Notes: a model not told the origin generated them from the letters alone. A stretch of DNA of 44,183 nucleotides from Candidatus Dojkabacteria bacterium (GCA_030583825.1 CP129477.1:576308-620490), one strand, 5' to 3'. Shown: positions 1 to 43,354, counted from the first letter of the stretch. Numbers and translations are program-made.

Positions 1-1050
1 GCTGCTAACTGCGTGCCAGAAGCATCGGTGATACGTGGGCTCCAAGCGTTGTCCGGATTTACTGGGCGTAAAGTACGTGTAGGCGGTTAGTTGGATTCTC
101 TTTTAAAGACCCTGGCTCAACCAGGGAAAGGGAGGGAATATCGGCTGGCTAGAAGTAAGAAGAGGAGATCGGAACGCGTAGTGGAGCGGTGAAATGTGTT
201 GATATTACGCGGAACGTCGGTTGCGAAGGCTGATCTCTGGTCTTGTCTTGACGCTGAGACGTGAAAGCTAGGGGAGCGAAACGGATTAGATACCCGTGTA
301 GTCCTAGCCGTAAATGATGTTTGCTAGGTGTCGGTTTACCTTTACCTCTTCCCTTAGGGGAGGTTGTAAAGAGGTCGGTGCCGAAGATAACTCGATAAGC
401 AAACCGCCTGAATAGTATGCTCGCAAGAGTGAAACTCAAAGGAATTGGCGGGGACCCGCACAAGCGGTGGAGCGCGTGGTTTAATCCGAGGGTAATCGTA
501 TAATCTTACCAGGGTTTGACATGCTGCTGCAGGCTTTTGGAAACAAGAGCGGCCTTCGAGGGTGCAGCACAGGTGCTGCATGGCCGTCGTCAGCTCGTGC
601 CGTGAGGTGTACCGTTAAGTCGGGTAACGAGCGAAACCCCTATCCCATGTTACAAGTGTCTTGGGAAACTGCCGCGGTAAAACGTGGAGGAAGGAGGGGA
701 CGACGTCTGGTCGTCATGGCCCTTATGCCCTGGGCTACACACGCGCTACAATGGTAGGTACAGCGAGCAGCTACACTGCAAAGTGATGCTAATCTCACAA
801 AACCTGCCTCAGTTCAGATTGTGGGCTGAAACTCGCCCACATGAAGCCGGAATCGCTAGTAATCGCAGATCAGCCATGCTGCGGTGAATACGTTCTCGGG
901 TCTTGCACACACCGCCCGTCACACTCCTAAAGTTGGGACTACCTAAAGACTTCAGATAATTTACTTTTGGGGTTTAGGGTGGGATCAGTAATAGGGGTGA
1001 AGTCGTAACAAGGTCGCCGTAGGGGAATCTGCGGCGAAATTACCTCCTTT
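1..1050 (+). rRNA. rrs: 16S rRNA, 5'-truncated by the window edge (starts near E. coli position 503)
   Basis: Conserved blocks ATTAGATACCC, AAACTCAAAGGAATTG, CAGCTCGTG, CACACCGCCCGTC and AAGTCGTAACAAGG; 3' anti-SD ACCTCCTTT ending near 1050. Confidence 0.98.
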
Positions 1051-1146
1051 CGGAGAAAAATAGTCGGTTTCTCCCGCCACACCAAGATTGTTAATTTGAG
1101 CAAACTTTCCAAATTAGGAAATTTTCTCTTTAAAGATAGAGAAATC

Positions 1147-1175
1147 TTGCTTTATCAAGATTTCTCACATAGAAT
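1147..1175 (+). promoter_or_regulatory. Putative sigma70 promoter of the FkbM gene (leaderless-type)
   Basis: TTGCTT-N17-TAGAAT, with the ATG 7 nt after the -10 box. Confidence 0.55.
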
Positions 1176-1182
1176 TCTCAAA

Positions 1183-2070
1183 ATGATCAAAGAACAAATC
1201 AGAACAGGACTTTATTCGTTTAGTCGTGCCTTTTTCAGCTCTTCATTTGGAAAGCAATTGGACACGTTTATGCAAAAAACTCCATTTTTAAAGCGTTTTC
1301 AAACAACAGCTATTGCATTTTTTGATGCAACAACAAAAGTTGAAGGTGAGAAAAAACTCACATTGGCTAATGGAACAGTATTTTTTGTTCCCCGTTCTGG
1401 TTCGTATGCTGCATTAGAGATCGAAACAACAGGCAAATACGAGCCTGAAGAAACAGAATTAATCACCAAAATACTCAAAAAAGGAGATACTTTTGTCGAA
1501 ATTGGAGGCAATATTGGGTACTTTTCTATTGTTTTTTCACCAATTGTTGGATCAGAAGGTAAAATTATCACCATAGAGCCCAGTCCAGCGATGGTTTCAA
1601 TACTCGAAAAAAATAAAGAGGCAAATAATGCTGAAAATATGACGATTGTTCCTGTTGCTATTGGAAAAGAAGAAGGGAAAATCTCGGTTGGAACAGAATC
1701 TTTTCATGATATGGCACGAATTTCTTTCGAAAATGGCACGATTCCTATGAAGCCTTTTGACATGATCTTGGACGAATTACATATTGACCATATTGATGTT
1801 GCTACTCTTGATATAGAAGGCGCAGAAATACTTGCGCTACAAGGCATGGAAAAGGTCTTAAAACAGAAAAAGATTGCAAAGATGATGGTAGAGGTCAATA
1901 AAGGTACACTTGCCGCTTTTGATGCCAAACCTATCCAATTACTTGAAATGCTTTCAGAATACTTCTCATTACGTTTGCTGGAATCTCCAGAACAGGAAGT
2001 TTCAATCGAGAAACTTGCCCAAATGGCGGATAATTTAACGTATGTGAATGTTTGGTGTGTCCGAAAATAA
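1183..2070 (+). CDS. FkbM-family SAM-dependent methyltransferase
   Basis: Motifs YEPEE, FVEIGGNIGYFS, IEPSP and LDIEGAE. Start set at ATG 1183 (MIKEQ) rather than the ORF-track TTG at 1096. Confidence 0.9.
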   Translation: MIKEQIRTGLYSFSRAFFSSSFGKQLDTFMQKTPFLKRFQTTAIAFFDATTKVEGEKKLTLANGTVFFVPRSGSYAALEIETTGKYEPEETELITKILKKGDTFVEIGGNIGYFSIVFSPIVGSEGKIITIEPSPAMVSILEKNKEANNAENMTIVPVAIGKEEGKISVGTESFHDMARISFENGTIPMKPFDMILDELHIDHIDVATLDIEGAEILALQGMEKVLKQKKIAKMMVEVNKGTLAAFDAKPIQLLEMLSEYFSLRLLESPEQEVSIEKLAQMADNLTYVNVWCVRK

Positions 2071-2134
2071 GCACTTTCGCCCGTATTTCCTAAAAATTTC
2101 GCCATATTCTTTTTATCGGCAAGCTCGAAAATAA

Positions 2135-2163
2135 TTGAGAATATATTTCCATTATGGTAAAAT
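2135..2163 (+). promoter_or_regulatory. Putative sigma70 promoter for tRNA-Ile/tRNA-Ala
   Basis: TTGAGA-N17-TAAAAT with an extended -10 TG. Confidence 0.6.
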
Positions 2164-41178: not shown

Positions 41179-41223
41179 CCAAGCTAAATACTCAATACTC
41201 CTGCTTTTATAGAGAAAATATTT

Positions 41224-43200
41224 TTACAAATCTTCACCGCCCATTCTCCAAAATGCGAGGCCTTTGATTTTGTATTTCTTGGCAAGTTTTTCGCGCTCTT
41301 GAACAGCACGTTTATCGAGATGAAACATTACTCGATTAATAGAGCCGTCTCGAAACGTGGAACGAACTTCGCTATTCCAAGTATCAAAGTTTTCGTTATA
41401 TCCGCGTATTGTTCTTTTTATCTCGGCAATATCATCGTGTTGCAGTGAGATTGTGTTTTTCTGTGCAACTGAAATCTCTTGGTCATTATTTGGCCCAGCT
41501 GGATCGCTTGATGAAGGCTCTGGCCATCCGTGAGAATAAATTGGCAATGCGAGAACTAACTTTTCTGCAGGAACTTTTTGCAGCGCATAGTCTAAGATCG
41601 CTTCGTTCCAAATAATCGGCGATAACGGGCCAGGAATAATACTGCCTTGGCTTGTAAAATCGTATCCCATGATTCGGATTTCATCCACATGTTTTGCAAG
41701 AAATGCCCAATCCTGAACTTGCCTCGTTTGTGGAAGGAATGTGTATATCTTTTCATCACTCCATTTAGGGAGCACTGTAAATACGAGAGTTTTGTTGGTT
41801 TTCTTTAGTTCAACACTGAGTGTCTCAATAAATTTCTCGAATAATTCTTTGTCTGCGAGATAGGTACTTTCATAGTCTAAATCAATACCAACATAGTTAT
41901 TTTTGTTCACCAAGTCCACAATATTCTTAATATGCTCGTCAAAATGATTATTCAAGGCCTCGCTTAAAATATCCGGGTCAAATTGTGTAATTGTAGGAAT
42001 GACGGTAATATTGTTATTTCTCGCAATTGAAAGTAATTCTGGATGATTTACGTTTCGTTCAACCGTAAATGTTCCATCTTTATTTAAAAAGTACCAAACC
42101 GGTGAAATCGTATTCCATCGTTTTGGATTTGCTCTGAGCGAAGTAAGTGCTCTCGCCATTCCCCAGTCAGGAATCCACGCAATGTATTGAGTATTTCCTG
42201 AAATATCTCCAGAAAGATCAGGAAGGGCAAACTGGTGGCTAAATTGCTTTGTTACAGTCAGAGTTGACGAAATTGAGGGACTTTCCAAATCTAATCCATA
42301 CCACACATTCAATTTATACAAAAAGTTATTTTCTTTTGGCTCTGAGGTTGGTACAAAATATCCTCCGGTTACCTGTGTCCAGACTTTTCCAGACTTAACA
42401 ACAGATTCCTGTGTTGATGCATAGAGAACTTCTGAGCTATATGCCTGCTGAATAAACATCCCTGATGGATCATTTATTTTCCATAAAATTGCTGGAACCT
42501 TTTCTGCTTTGATGTCAATTTCTAGCTGTGGCAAACGAGTTACAAATGGCGTTAGTTGCTGTTTGTCATTTCGCAACAGTATAAAAGACGTCTTTCCCGT
42601 CGTATTTTGCGCAACAGATGGCGGAGTAGCAAGAAAACTTTCTAAACAGGCTTCGTCTTGAACACAGGCAAACATGTGCAACGTGTGGCGAGAAGCTTCA
42701 TCAAAGAACTGTACGCTTTTTTCGTAAGTTACTGGCGAAGATGGTAAGAGCTCCATTGATTCAGTATTCGTAGAATATACAAAACATGTATATTTTAGAG
42801 TTTTGCATGTTTCGGCTAATGCCTCTGGAACAAAGAAATGTGCGACGGTTGGCGCAATTTCAGATTGTAATTCTTCTACAGAAGCAACAAGCAAATATAC
42901 CGGAGTTCGCTGCTTGAGCGTGGTAATAACTTCGCTTGAAAGCATTGTGCTATATTCAAAAACATAGCTGGAATATGCTGTTTTATCTGAAAGTAAGCGT
43001 GTTTGTTCTGCTTCTGTGAGCTGGTTTCCTGCCGTAAGGTAGAAAACCGAACTAAGATCCGGCTTTTGAGGCTCTTGTGCCTGTTGCTGAGAAAAGGAAG
43101 GTAATTTGCCCAAATATGCGAGAGTTGCAATGATCACTAAAACAATAATAGTAATTATTGCAATTCCAATAATAATGAGTTTTTTACGGGAGAGAGGCAT
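41224..43200 (-). CDS. Membrane-anchored protein with C-terminal GH18 (chitinase/SleL-like) domain
   Basis: N-terminal TM; ISPVWY, GIDLDYE (DxDxE), IRIMGYD, KLVLALPIYS and GLAFWRMGGED. Confidence 0.88.
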   Translation of the reverse strand: MPLSRKKLIIIGIAIITIIVLVIIATLAYLGKLPSFSQQQAQEPQKPDLSSVFYLTAGNQLTEAEQTRLLSDKTAYSSYVFEYSTMLSSEVITTLKQRTPVYLLVASVEELQSEIAPTVAHFFVPEALAETCKTLKYTCFVYSTNTESMELLPSSPVTYEKSVQFFDEASRHTLHMFACVQDEACLESFLATPPSVAQNTTGKTSFILLRNDKQQLTPFVTRLPQLEIDIKAEKVPAILWKINDPSGMFIQQAYSSEVLYASTQESVVKSGKVWTQVTGGYFVPTSEPKENNFLYKLNVWYGLDLESPSISSTLTVTKQFSHQFALPDLSGDISGNTQYIAWIPDWGMARALTSLRANPKRWNTISPVWYFLNKDGTFTVERNVNHPELLSIARNNNITVIPTITQFDPDILSEALNNHFDEHIKNIVDLVNKNNYVGIDLDYESTYLADKELFEKFIETLSVELKKTNKTLVFTVLPKWSDEKIYTFLPQTRQVQDWAFLAKHVDEIRIMGYDFTSQGSIIPGPLSPIIWNEAILDYALQKVPAEKLVLALPIYSHGWPEPSSSDPAGPNNDQEISVAQKNTISLQHDDIAEIKRTIRGYNENFDTWNSEVRSTFRDGSINRVMFHLDKRAVQEREKLAKKYKIKGLAFWRMGGEDL

Positions 43201-43204
43201 AGTA

Positions 43205-43233
43205 TTGCATTCATAAATTTATCCTGTTATAAT
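43205..43233 (+). promoter_or_regulatory. 5S rRNA promoter (putative)
   Basis: TTGCAT-N17-TATAAT with extended TG, ending 4-6 nt before the 5S 5' end. Confidence 0.75.
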
Positions 43234-43237
43234 ACAT

Positions 43238-43354
43238 TGCTTGGTGATTAGAGCGGGGTAGACCCACCTGATTCCATTTCGAACTCAGAAGTGAAATATC
43301 CCAGCGTCGAAGATACTTAGATTTTCTCTGGGGAAAATAGATCATCGCCAAGCA
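43238..43354 (+). rRNA. rrf: 5S rRNA
   Basis: Helix I TGCTTGGTGAT/ATCGCCAAGCA, CACCTGATTCCATTTCGAACTCAGAAGTGAA, about 117 nt, followed by a T-tract. Confidence 0.95.

Follow-up and report, generated by a model that had tools for sequence, protein, structure and literature searches.

The single ribosomal RNA (rRNA) operon of a Candidatus Dojkabacteria bacterium (GCA_030583825.1, hereafter G000), a member of the candidate phyla radiation (CPR), was analysed in a window of 44,183 nucleotides (nt), i.e., the whole stretch CP129477.1:576308-620490, with positions counted from its first letter. Five RNA genes, namely 16S, tRNA-Ile, tRNA-Ala, 23S and 5S, lie there on the + strand and in canonical order, spread across 43 kb as located with Rfam and ARAGORN; an initial annotation made from the sequence alone had described this very order, with gaps of about 1.1, 34.8 and 2.9 kb, and is borne out. 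Because the flanks of the locus are collinear with those of compact relatives and pieces of the old spacer persist at the junctions, 16S and 23S were separated by DNA gained, in net terms, within the spacer and not by relocation of rRNA genes. The RNA genes, their signals and the two inserts are as follows, with the basis of each in brackets:

About 450 nt upstream of 16S, outside the window, +: 16S promoter TTGACA-N16-TATAAT (sequence motif)
1-1050, +: 16S rRNA gene, 3' two-thirds (Rfam, model positions 493-1533; the window start cuts the gene)
1051-1095, +: 16S trailer (homologous to the relatives' spacer)
1096-2180, +: insert 1, 1,085 bp (holds an FkbM-family methyltransferase gene, then the tRNA promoter-like site)
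2135-2163, +: promoter-like site of the tRNA pair, TTGAGA-N17-TAAAAT with TG (inside insert 1)
2181-2255, +: tRNA-Ile (GAT) (Rfam, ARAGORN)
2339-2415, +: tRNA-Ala (TGC) (Rfam, ARAGORN)
2414-2455, +: hairpin of the intrinsic terminator after tRNA-Ala (-21.8 kcal/mol, then T7)
2466-2478, +: second small hairpin with a T-run (sequence motif)
2479-36920, both strands: insert 2, about 34.4 kb, borders approximate (nine genes)
36923-36951, +: 23S promoter-like site P1, TTGCAA-N17-TATAAT (sequence motif)
37009-37037, +: 23S promoter-like site P2, TTGTAA-N17-TATAAT with TG (directly before a 'CTGC..ACG' element)
37038-37217, +: 23S leader (homologous to the relatives' spacer; hairpin at 37090-37115)
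37218-40339, +: 23S rRNA gene (Rfam)
43205-43233, +: putative 5S promoter TTGCAT-N17-TATAAT with TG (conservation in the family)
43240-43353, +: 5S rRNA gene, feature to 43365 with the T-run (Rfam; conserved T-run after the terminal helix)

The gaps measure 1,130 bp between 16S and tRNA-Ile, 34,802 bp between tRNA-Ala and 23S, and 2,900 bp between 23S and 5S, and real open reading frames (ORFs) are present in all of them. From the end of the complete 16S gene (G000:C1:575799-577357) to the start of 23S (G000 613525), the distance is 36,167 bp, well beyond the 1,500 bp above which 16S and 23S count as unlinked (Brewer et al., bioRxiv 10.1101/705046), and the arrangement falls into the class called “unlinked by distance,” i.e., one strand, >2,000 bp apart and, between them, opposite-strand genes that rule out a single promoter (Lui et al., 2021, Fig 3D). 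The genome is one contig of 1,090,595 bp (1.09 Mb) with 39.8% guanine + cytosine (GC), and no rRNA gene occurs in it more than once. The GC skew of the + strand is positive in 40 of 44 one-kb windows and the cumulative skew reaches its minimum near 476 kb, about 100 kb ahead of the window, which fits a + strand that is the leading strand; a crude ORF count gives no strong strand bias there (200/429 ORFs).

The initial annotation held that the operon had come apart by insertion into three spacers and that related genomes would bear on this, and the comparison did return compact spacers of 0.4-0.7 kb within collinear flanks. Among the 10 other genomes of the same family, five carry 16S and 23S on one contig, with 731, 582, 535, 659, and 419 bp between the two genes in G001, G003, G007, G008, and G005, respectively, and tRNA-Ile and tRNA-Ala inside. 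Upstream of 16S, the flank (G000 554.5-570.6 kb, then tRNA-Arg) is collinear with that of G001, G003, G007, and G005; downstream of 23S, the flank running from a gene for a GH18-domain protein through 5S and YidC to the gene of a 207-amino acid (aa) protein is collinear with that of G001, G003, G007, and G010. Both flanks being collinear with relatives, neither 16S nor 23S has moved.

The junctions retain the old spacer. On the left, positions 1051-1095 correspond to the 16S trailer of the relatives as far as '...GATTGTTAA', the last base ahead of their tRNA-Ile, and the 3' strand of the 16S processing stem (1067-1095) pairs with the 16S leader at G000 575530-575557, where 27 of 29 positions are complementary by eye, so that insert 1 begins directly behind the 16S processing stem. 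On the right, about 37030-37217 aligns with the 23S-proximal portion of the relatives' spacers, comprising (i) the -10 box with the 'CTGC..ACG' element that follows P2 and also occurs in the relatives' compact spacers, (ii) the leader hairpin, and (iii) a strand of the 23S stem. The latter stem is formed by a 5' strand at 37193-37215 and a 3' strand at 40408-40430, with a flank duplex of -47.1 kcal/mol, and the processing stems of 16S and 23S are both intact. Judged from these elements, insert 2 begins behind the terminator of tRNA-Ala and ends ahead of the 23S promoter region, with approximate borders.

The separation of 23S from 5S has a different history. G001, G003, G007, and G010 likewise have a GH18 gene between the two, encoded on the other strand (23S-5S gaps of 5,550, 4,598, 10,203, and 4,427 bp), and this split is thus a family trait older than G000; in the wider class, 5S mostly follows within about 90-350 bp after 23S. 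Insertion as first claimed stands for the 16S-23S split, with its collinear flanks and spacer remnants; the 23S-5S split predates G000. A separate case within the family is G002, where 16S, 23S, and 5S lie on three contigs (C38, C5, and C23, respectively) and where the upstream neighbours of 16S differ, being orthologues of G000 genes at 645-652 kb; unlike in G000, this looks like a true rearrangement. As regards the 23S gene itself, that of G000 spans 3,122 nt for a model of 2,925 positions and that of G002 (G002:C5:4702-8457) spans 3,756 nt, which suggests insertions within both, as reported for CPR.

Hexamer pairs with a 17-nt spacing had been read at 2135-2163, 36923, 37009, and 43205, and they are present; their description as new promoters for the separated pieces was correct for the tRNA pair and mistaken for 23S and 5S. 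The tRNA promoter-like site, whose -10 box ends 17 nt ahead of tRNA-Ile, lies inside insert 1. Upstream of 5S, a promoter footprint is found in five of five family genomes, in which TTGC(A/C) and TGnTATAAT are invariant, the 17-nt spacer and the upstream sequence vary freely, and 5S begins 6 nt behind the -10 box, with a T-run after its terminal helix; in G000 this promoter was read directly, the site search having omitted it since its first hexamer matches only 3/6. Upstream of 23S, a pair of hexamers spaced by 17 nt directly precedes 'CTGC' in G003 (11/12), in G008 (9/12), and in G000 (10/12, with TG), and G001 and G007 have at this place an 8/12 site with a TG-extended -10 box, whose TTGCAT form is also that of the conserved 5S promoter. 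A 23S promoter-like site hence occupies the homologous position in 4/5 compact relatives. By this reading of the sequences, the putative 23S and 5S promoters are not new to G000, and only the candidate tRNA promoter and the terminator after tRNA-Ala are specific to it. The terminator, likewise noticed at first sight, is real, with 18-nt arms at 2414-2431 and 2438-2455 that are 94% complementary; in the spacers of G001, G003, G007, and G008, read by eye, tRNA-Ala is followed by a hairpin or by none, and by no T-run. In the same area, a 20-nt inverted repeat (2246-2302, 85% complementary) pairs the tRNA-Ile 3' end and the CCA encoded there with the Ile-Ala spacer and folds at -26 kcal/mol with no T-run behind; it could be a processing signal, a pausing signal or a scar.

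Spacers of this kind recur in the class. The survey took in 143 class genomes of at least 90% completeness, 91 with a 16S match and 84 with a BLAST match to the 5' kilobase of the window's 23S; 74 genomes with both a full-length 16S and a 23S 5' match were tabulated, and 17 were dropped (G010, G019, G025, G034, G039, G040, G049, G051, G055, G074, G078, G089, G111, G118, G126, G127, and G138) for a partial 16S or for want of a 23S match or, in the case of G019, for overlapping record ends that mimic a split where the real gap is ~0.56 kb. In 68 of the 74 genomes the two genes share a contig, the other six having them on different contigs and not being judgeable. Among these 68 pairs, 57 are compact (262-1172 bp), 11 are expanded (1.8-39.5 kb), and none is inverted or reversed. 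The expanded spacers, from five families, measure 39.5, 36.2 (G000, the second largest), 24.9, 21.1, 17.3, 15.9, 11.7, 6.0, 5.0, 4.9, and 1.8 kb, and in each of the other ten, tRNA-Ile still precedes tRNA-Ala, both on the rRNA strand. The additional DNA falls into three recurring slots, namely 16S-Ile, Ile-Ala, and Ala-23S. ORFs of the two inner slots (16S-Ile and Ile-Ala) lie on the rRNA strand in 15/15 cases, against 95/124 in the Ala-23S slot, a weak statistic given that the genomes are related. In 6 of the 11 expanded operons, the 120 nt before tRNA-Ile contain a promoter-like site (score of at least 10), where the background of these spacers is 0.055 such sites per 120 nt, and a clear terminator after tRNA-Ala occurs among them only in G000 and G020. 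Another class relative, G017, has an order of its own at G017:C1:723135-728470, with 16S (723135-724643), 5S (725054-725170), and 23S (725417-728470) all on the + strand, i.e., with 5S between the other two.

The cargo of the other expanded spacers, for which 126 of 129 ORFs were scanned and three spanning locus joins were skipped, is mixed and includes GNATs, a sigma-factor and FecR-domain pair, NUDIX, MoxR-VWA, an IS200-like transposase, many large proteins of no family, polA and secA. Some of it is shared within the lineages G041/G042, G038/G016, and G044/G043, and one GNAT is common to two families; G000 shares no cargo with any of these spacers, hence its expansion is independent. The common GNAT sits in the tRNA-Ile/tRNA-Ala slot (L016:1158-1643 in G044, 161 aa; L020:708-1187 in G035, 159 aa; 44% identical). 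The family-A DNA polymerase and the 5'-3' exonuclease are two separate ORFs in the spacer of G075 (L021:8964-11552), and SecA is encoded in that of G043 (L024:1132-3726).

In G000, the genes lying between the RNA genes are the following:

ORF 1096-2070, called start ATG 1183, +: FkbM-family methyltransferase, 295 aa (domain match)
2626-3642, -: CHASE-domain protein, 338 aa (Pfam)
3611-6556, -: 981-aa protein (no Pfam match)
6834-7544, -: GT2 glycosyltransferase (Pfam)
7862-12964, +: 1700-aa protein (no Pfam match)
13156-35367, +: four LamG_3/DUF2341 giants (Pfam)
35642-36640, +: 332-aa membrane protein (no Pfam match)
40487-40864, -: PIN-domain protein (Pfam)
40857-41117, -: 86-aa ORF upstream of the PIN gene (ORF)
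41224-43200, -: GH18-domain membrane protein (Pfam; shared by G001, G003, G007, and G010)

Six of these genes oppose the rRNA strand, three at the start of insert 2 (CHASE, 981-aa, GT2) and three between 23S and 5S (PIN, 86-aa, GH18). A simple hydropathy scan finds a signal- or anchor-like N-terminal segment or a membrane-spanning hydrophobic one in 8 of the 9 insert 2 proteins; the count is 8/10 with the methyltransferase and 9/13 when GH18, PIN, and its 86-aa partner are added. Fimbrial (TafC) and gliding (AgmC) models also match the first giant in part, with scores that fall short of the curated cut-offs. “Envelope” is as such a fair label for the cargo. The suggestion that rRNA spacers act as landing sites for envelope and defence genes accordingly keeps its envelope part and its recurrence (11/68) and loses the defence part: PADLOC leaves 12 of the 13 cargo proteins without a match, PIN included, the methyltransferase giving a weak domain-level match to mad2 (E-value 4.9e-8), and in the class at large the mixed cargo with polA and secA does not fit such a specialisation. 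The PIN/86-aa pair resembles a toxin-antitoxin module and is not found at the corresponding place in the relatives; the genes found between 23S and GH18 change from one genus to the next. For the methyltransferase, no orthologue was found in the 10 family relatives and no match in the species-representative collection, and its homologues at 73% and 69% identity stand on other contigs, one of them 163 kb long. Between the 16S processing stem and this gene, the + strand bears no promoter-like or terminator-like site. The CHASE ORF and the end of the 981-aa ORF have 32 nt in common, read in different frames, and the two may be one frameshifted or translationally coupled gene.

Where the 34 kb came from was approached by composition and by homology. 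The four giants are old paralogues, at 28-51% identity, with a fifth LamG paralogue at G000 1042708-1045548. Windows of the block stand at the 58th-98th percentile for GC and tetranucleotide distance, with the giant-gene part mostly at the 90th-98th, and recent horizontal transfer was considered on this ground and set aside as uninformative, since all giant genes of G000 share the block's GC. Neither the 981-aa protein nor a LamG giant has an orthologue in the 10 family relatives. Searched against metagenome contigs, LamG giant no. 3 finds only distant relatives (seven loci, best segments at 38-43% identity) and no closer genome with the layout of G000. As to an island targeted to a tRNA gene, no integrase or recombinase family appears among the Pfam matches of the block proteins, of which the 981-aa, 1700-aa, and 332-aa proteins have none, and 2416-37000 contains no tRNA-Ala fragment beyond a chance match (E-value 0.29). 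Border repeats and target-site duplications were sought and none was found, the 22-nt repeat near the 332-aa gene being a dispersed genome-wide element. Just upstream of the 23S promoter-like sites, two full and two partial copies of this repeat flank the 332-aa gene; with up to 4 mismatches there are eight copies in the genome, at window 35461-35522 and 36706-36804 and at G000 325635, 345789, 353255, 356699, 638650, and 677600.

A first alternative is that resident giant-protein genes were moved into the spacer from nearby by recombination, in an unstable neighbourhood. The surroundings of the operon are fluid across the family, giants of 4,043 and 4,135 aa lying directly upstream of 16S in G003 and G007, and a giant of 3.7-4.3 thousand aa lying downstream of 5S/YidC in G001, G003, and G007, with its G000 orthologue displaced ~190 kb from the rRNA locus; the 23S-GH18 slot, which changes cargo by genus, points the same way, as do the fifth LamG paralogue elsewhere in G000 and the block's composition, equal to that of other giant genes (GC 0.417-0.427 for the four giants and 0.40-0.447 for giant genes elsewhere in the genome). 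That displaced orthologue is a 3,628-aa giant with a 310-aa partner (G000:C1:386217-398025) and shows 37-38% identity over ~2,700 aa. Such reshuffling is nonetheless improbable, because block genes match the relatives' neighbouring giants at the domain level only (23-36% identity over a few hundred residues) and the 981-aa protein has no match in the family; it differs from DNA gain within the spacer only in the source of the DNA, with the same outcome.

A tandem direct duplication of an operon segment, followed by reciprocal loss of 23S-5S from the first copy and of 16S and the tRNAs from the second, would keep the order without any insertion. It would automatically account for all 11 expanded pairs being in order and on one strand, and for the core genes polA and secA inside spacers of other families. 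Against it, 16S, 23S, 5S, and tRNA remnants were sought in the G000 spacers and none was found (best E-value 0.01), the rRNAs are single-copy in G000, and where the two class searches list several matches for a genome, these are fragments or partial and not second full-length genes. The cargo, moreover, is not a copy of genes flanking the operon and has no orthologues in the relatives' flanks or genomes, and the junctions fall exactly at module borders with old spacer sequence on both sides. This course of events appears slightly less probable still than reshuffling. Least probable by far is an assembly error, with unrelated DNA joined between 16S and 23S at or close to the conserved rRNA genes. 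Such genes are classic points of misassembly, and this genome is drawn from metagenomes. Against this, the rRNA genes are single-copy and hence offer no internal repeat to misjoin, the junctions fall in non-conserved spacer sequence and not within rRNA, both halves of each processing stem and the family-specific spacer fragments are on their correct sides, 17 runs from 7 studies support 1051-9000 with its three junctions, and ten other class genomes share the architecture. In these runs, from sludge or bioreactor metagenomes, at least half of the sampled words of 1051-9000 are present, six runs possibly being the source of the genome; the segment spans the junctions trailer/methyltransferase, methyltransferase/tRNAs, and tRNA-Ala/CHASE. 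A chimera is unlikely for the further reason that it would need to reproduce family-specific spacer fragments on the correct sides.

Several observations weigh against expansion of the spacer by insertion, or against parts of that account. For the right-hand junctions (36.6-43.3 kb), the support consists of synteny, homology, and the pairing of processing stems. The entry of the 34 kb has left no integrase, transposase or border repeat, and neither GC nor the divergence of the giants supports a recent transfer or points to a source of the DNA. Core genes such as polA and secA in some spacers of other families fit local rearrangement more easily than simple insertion. The family comprises 11 genomes and G000 is the sole member of its genus, so the events cannot be dated. 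Promoter-like sites are no commoner in the sequence than in its shuffles (7 against 4.7 ± 2.1, and 16 against 16.2 ± 4.6), and they consequently gain weight from position and conservation alone, on which the transcription units proposed below are likewise built. The compact relative G005, finally, has no promoter-like site before 23S, so that not every family member has an internal 23S promoter.

With these points taken into account, we consider it highly probable that the modules of the single rRNA operon of this small-genome CPR bacterium stayed in place while DNA accumulated between them. As an older event, common to the family, the GH18 gene would have been placed between 23S and 5S. In the lineage of G000, about 1.1 kb with the methyltransferase gene would then have entered exactly between the 16S processing stem and tRNA-Ile, and about 34.4 kb of genes for secreted and membrane proteins would have entered between tRNA-Ala and the 23S promoter region. 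The locus would most likely be read as four transcription units, namely (i) 16S, probably with the methyltransferase mRNA on its tail, (ii) the tRNA pair, from the promoter that insert 1 brings along to the strong terminator at the end, (iii) 23S, from promoters pre-existing in the compact spacer, and (iv) 5S, as a mini-transcript close to its mature form. Both the terminator behind tRNA-Ala and the opposite-strand genes argue against a single precursor for all rRNA genes. If 23S and 5S already had their own promoters, losing co-transcription would have cost little, and we infer that such a low cost would explain why order-preserving expansion recurs in the class.

Split rRNA genes are familiar from other small genomes, since in Borrelia burgdorferi, Buchnera, Rickettsia, and Wolbachia 16S stands apart from 23S-5S and the pieces are thought to be separately transcribed, the gaps being of kilobase scale or the relocation full and the spacer tRNAs often lost or displaced. 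G000 differs from these in keeping both tRNAs in order, as what would be a unit of their own, and in having a gap made mainly of giant surface-protein genes. The B. burgdorferi rRNA locus and the split rRNA genes of the other three are cited as examples by Lui, Nielsen & Arkin (2021; PMC8172020), who report unlinked rRNA genes in 27 of 34 circularised CPR genomes and, as far as the available part of their paper goes, distinguish a one-strand class “unlinked by distance,” protein genes in spacers and 23S-5S separation, their single Dojkabacteria genome being compact (386 and 131 bp). G000 is like that class in its single strand, its distance of more than 2 kb, the opposite-strand genes, the tRNAs and protein genes in the spacers, and the separated 5S. 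In that part the paper deals with arrangement classes, with no comparison to compact relatives, junction analysis or promoters, whereas the present locus adds a mechanism of gain, three slots, and promoters older than the split. Brewer et al. (bioRxiv 10.1101/705046), using the threshold given above, list Patescibacteria among the affected clades, with a mean distance of ~410 kb; the part of that preprint at hand contains no account of order, retained tRNAs or spacer cargo, in contrast to the 36 kb with modules in order described here. That rRNA genes of CPR bacteria can be unlinked on one strand, with protein genes in their spacers, is thus already published (PMC8172020; bioRxiv 10.1101/705046), and G000 is a clear, well-documented case of this known phenomenon, and an unusually large one. 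Within the one library searched, no paper was found on order-preserving spacer expansion in Dojkabacteria, on junction-level expansion in place, on retention of both tRNAs in three recurrent slots, or on promoters that predate the split.

Beyond the locus, it is conceivable, if doubtful, that the “operon” of the class is a row of self-sufficient modules (16S, tRNA pair, 23S, and 5S) that bring their own promoters and processing signals, close neighbours or not, the spacers being neutral safe harbours and the promoters coming before the break-up. On the same tentative footing, DNA would pile up repeatedly, to ~39 kb, with the modules never moving, and cargo of the inner slots may ride on rRNA transcription. 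What the DNA gain in the spacers of G000 does provide is a junction-level account of how an rRNA operon breaks up, in which new DNA comes in at the borders of modules, the order, strand, processing stems, and spacer tRNAs are kept, and at least two of the promoters that independence needs would already be present. Lineages with such spacers, i.e., 11 of 68 genomes of the Dojkabacteria class with 16S and 23S 1.8-39.5 kb apart, are invisible to long-amplicon profiling across 16S, the internal transcribed spacer and 23S. The locus of G000 also offers a testable system for whether co-transcription of rRNA matters in slow-growing bacteria with a single rRNA copy.

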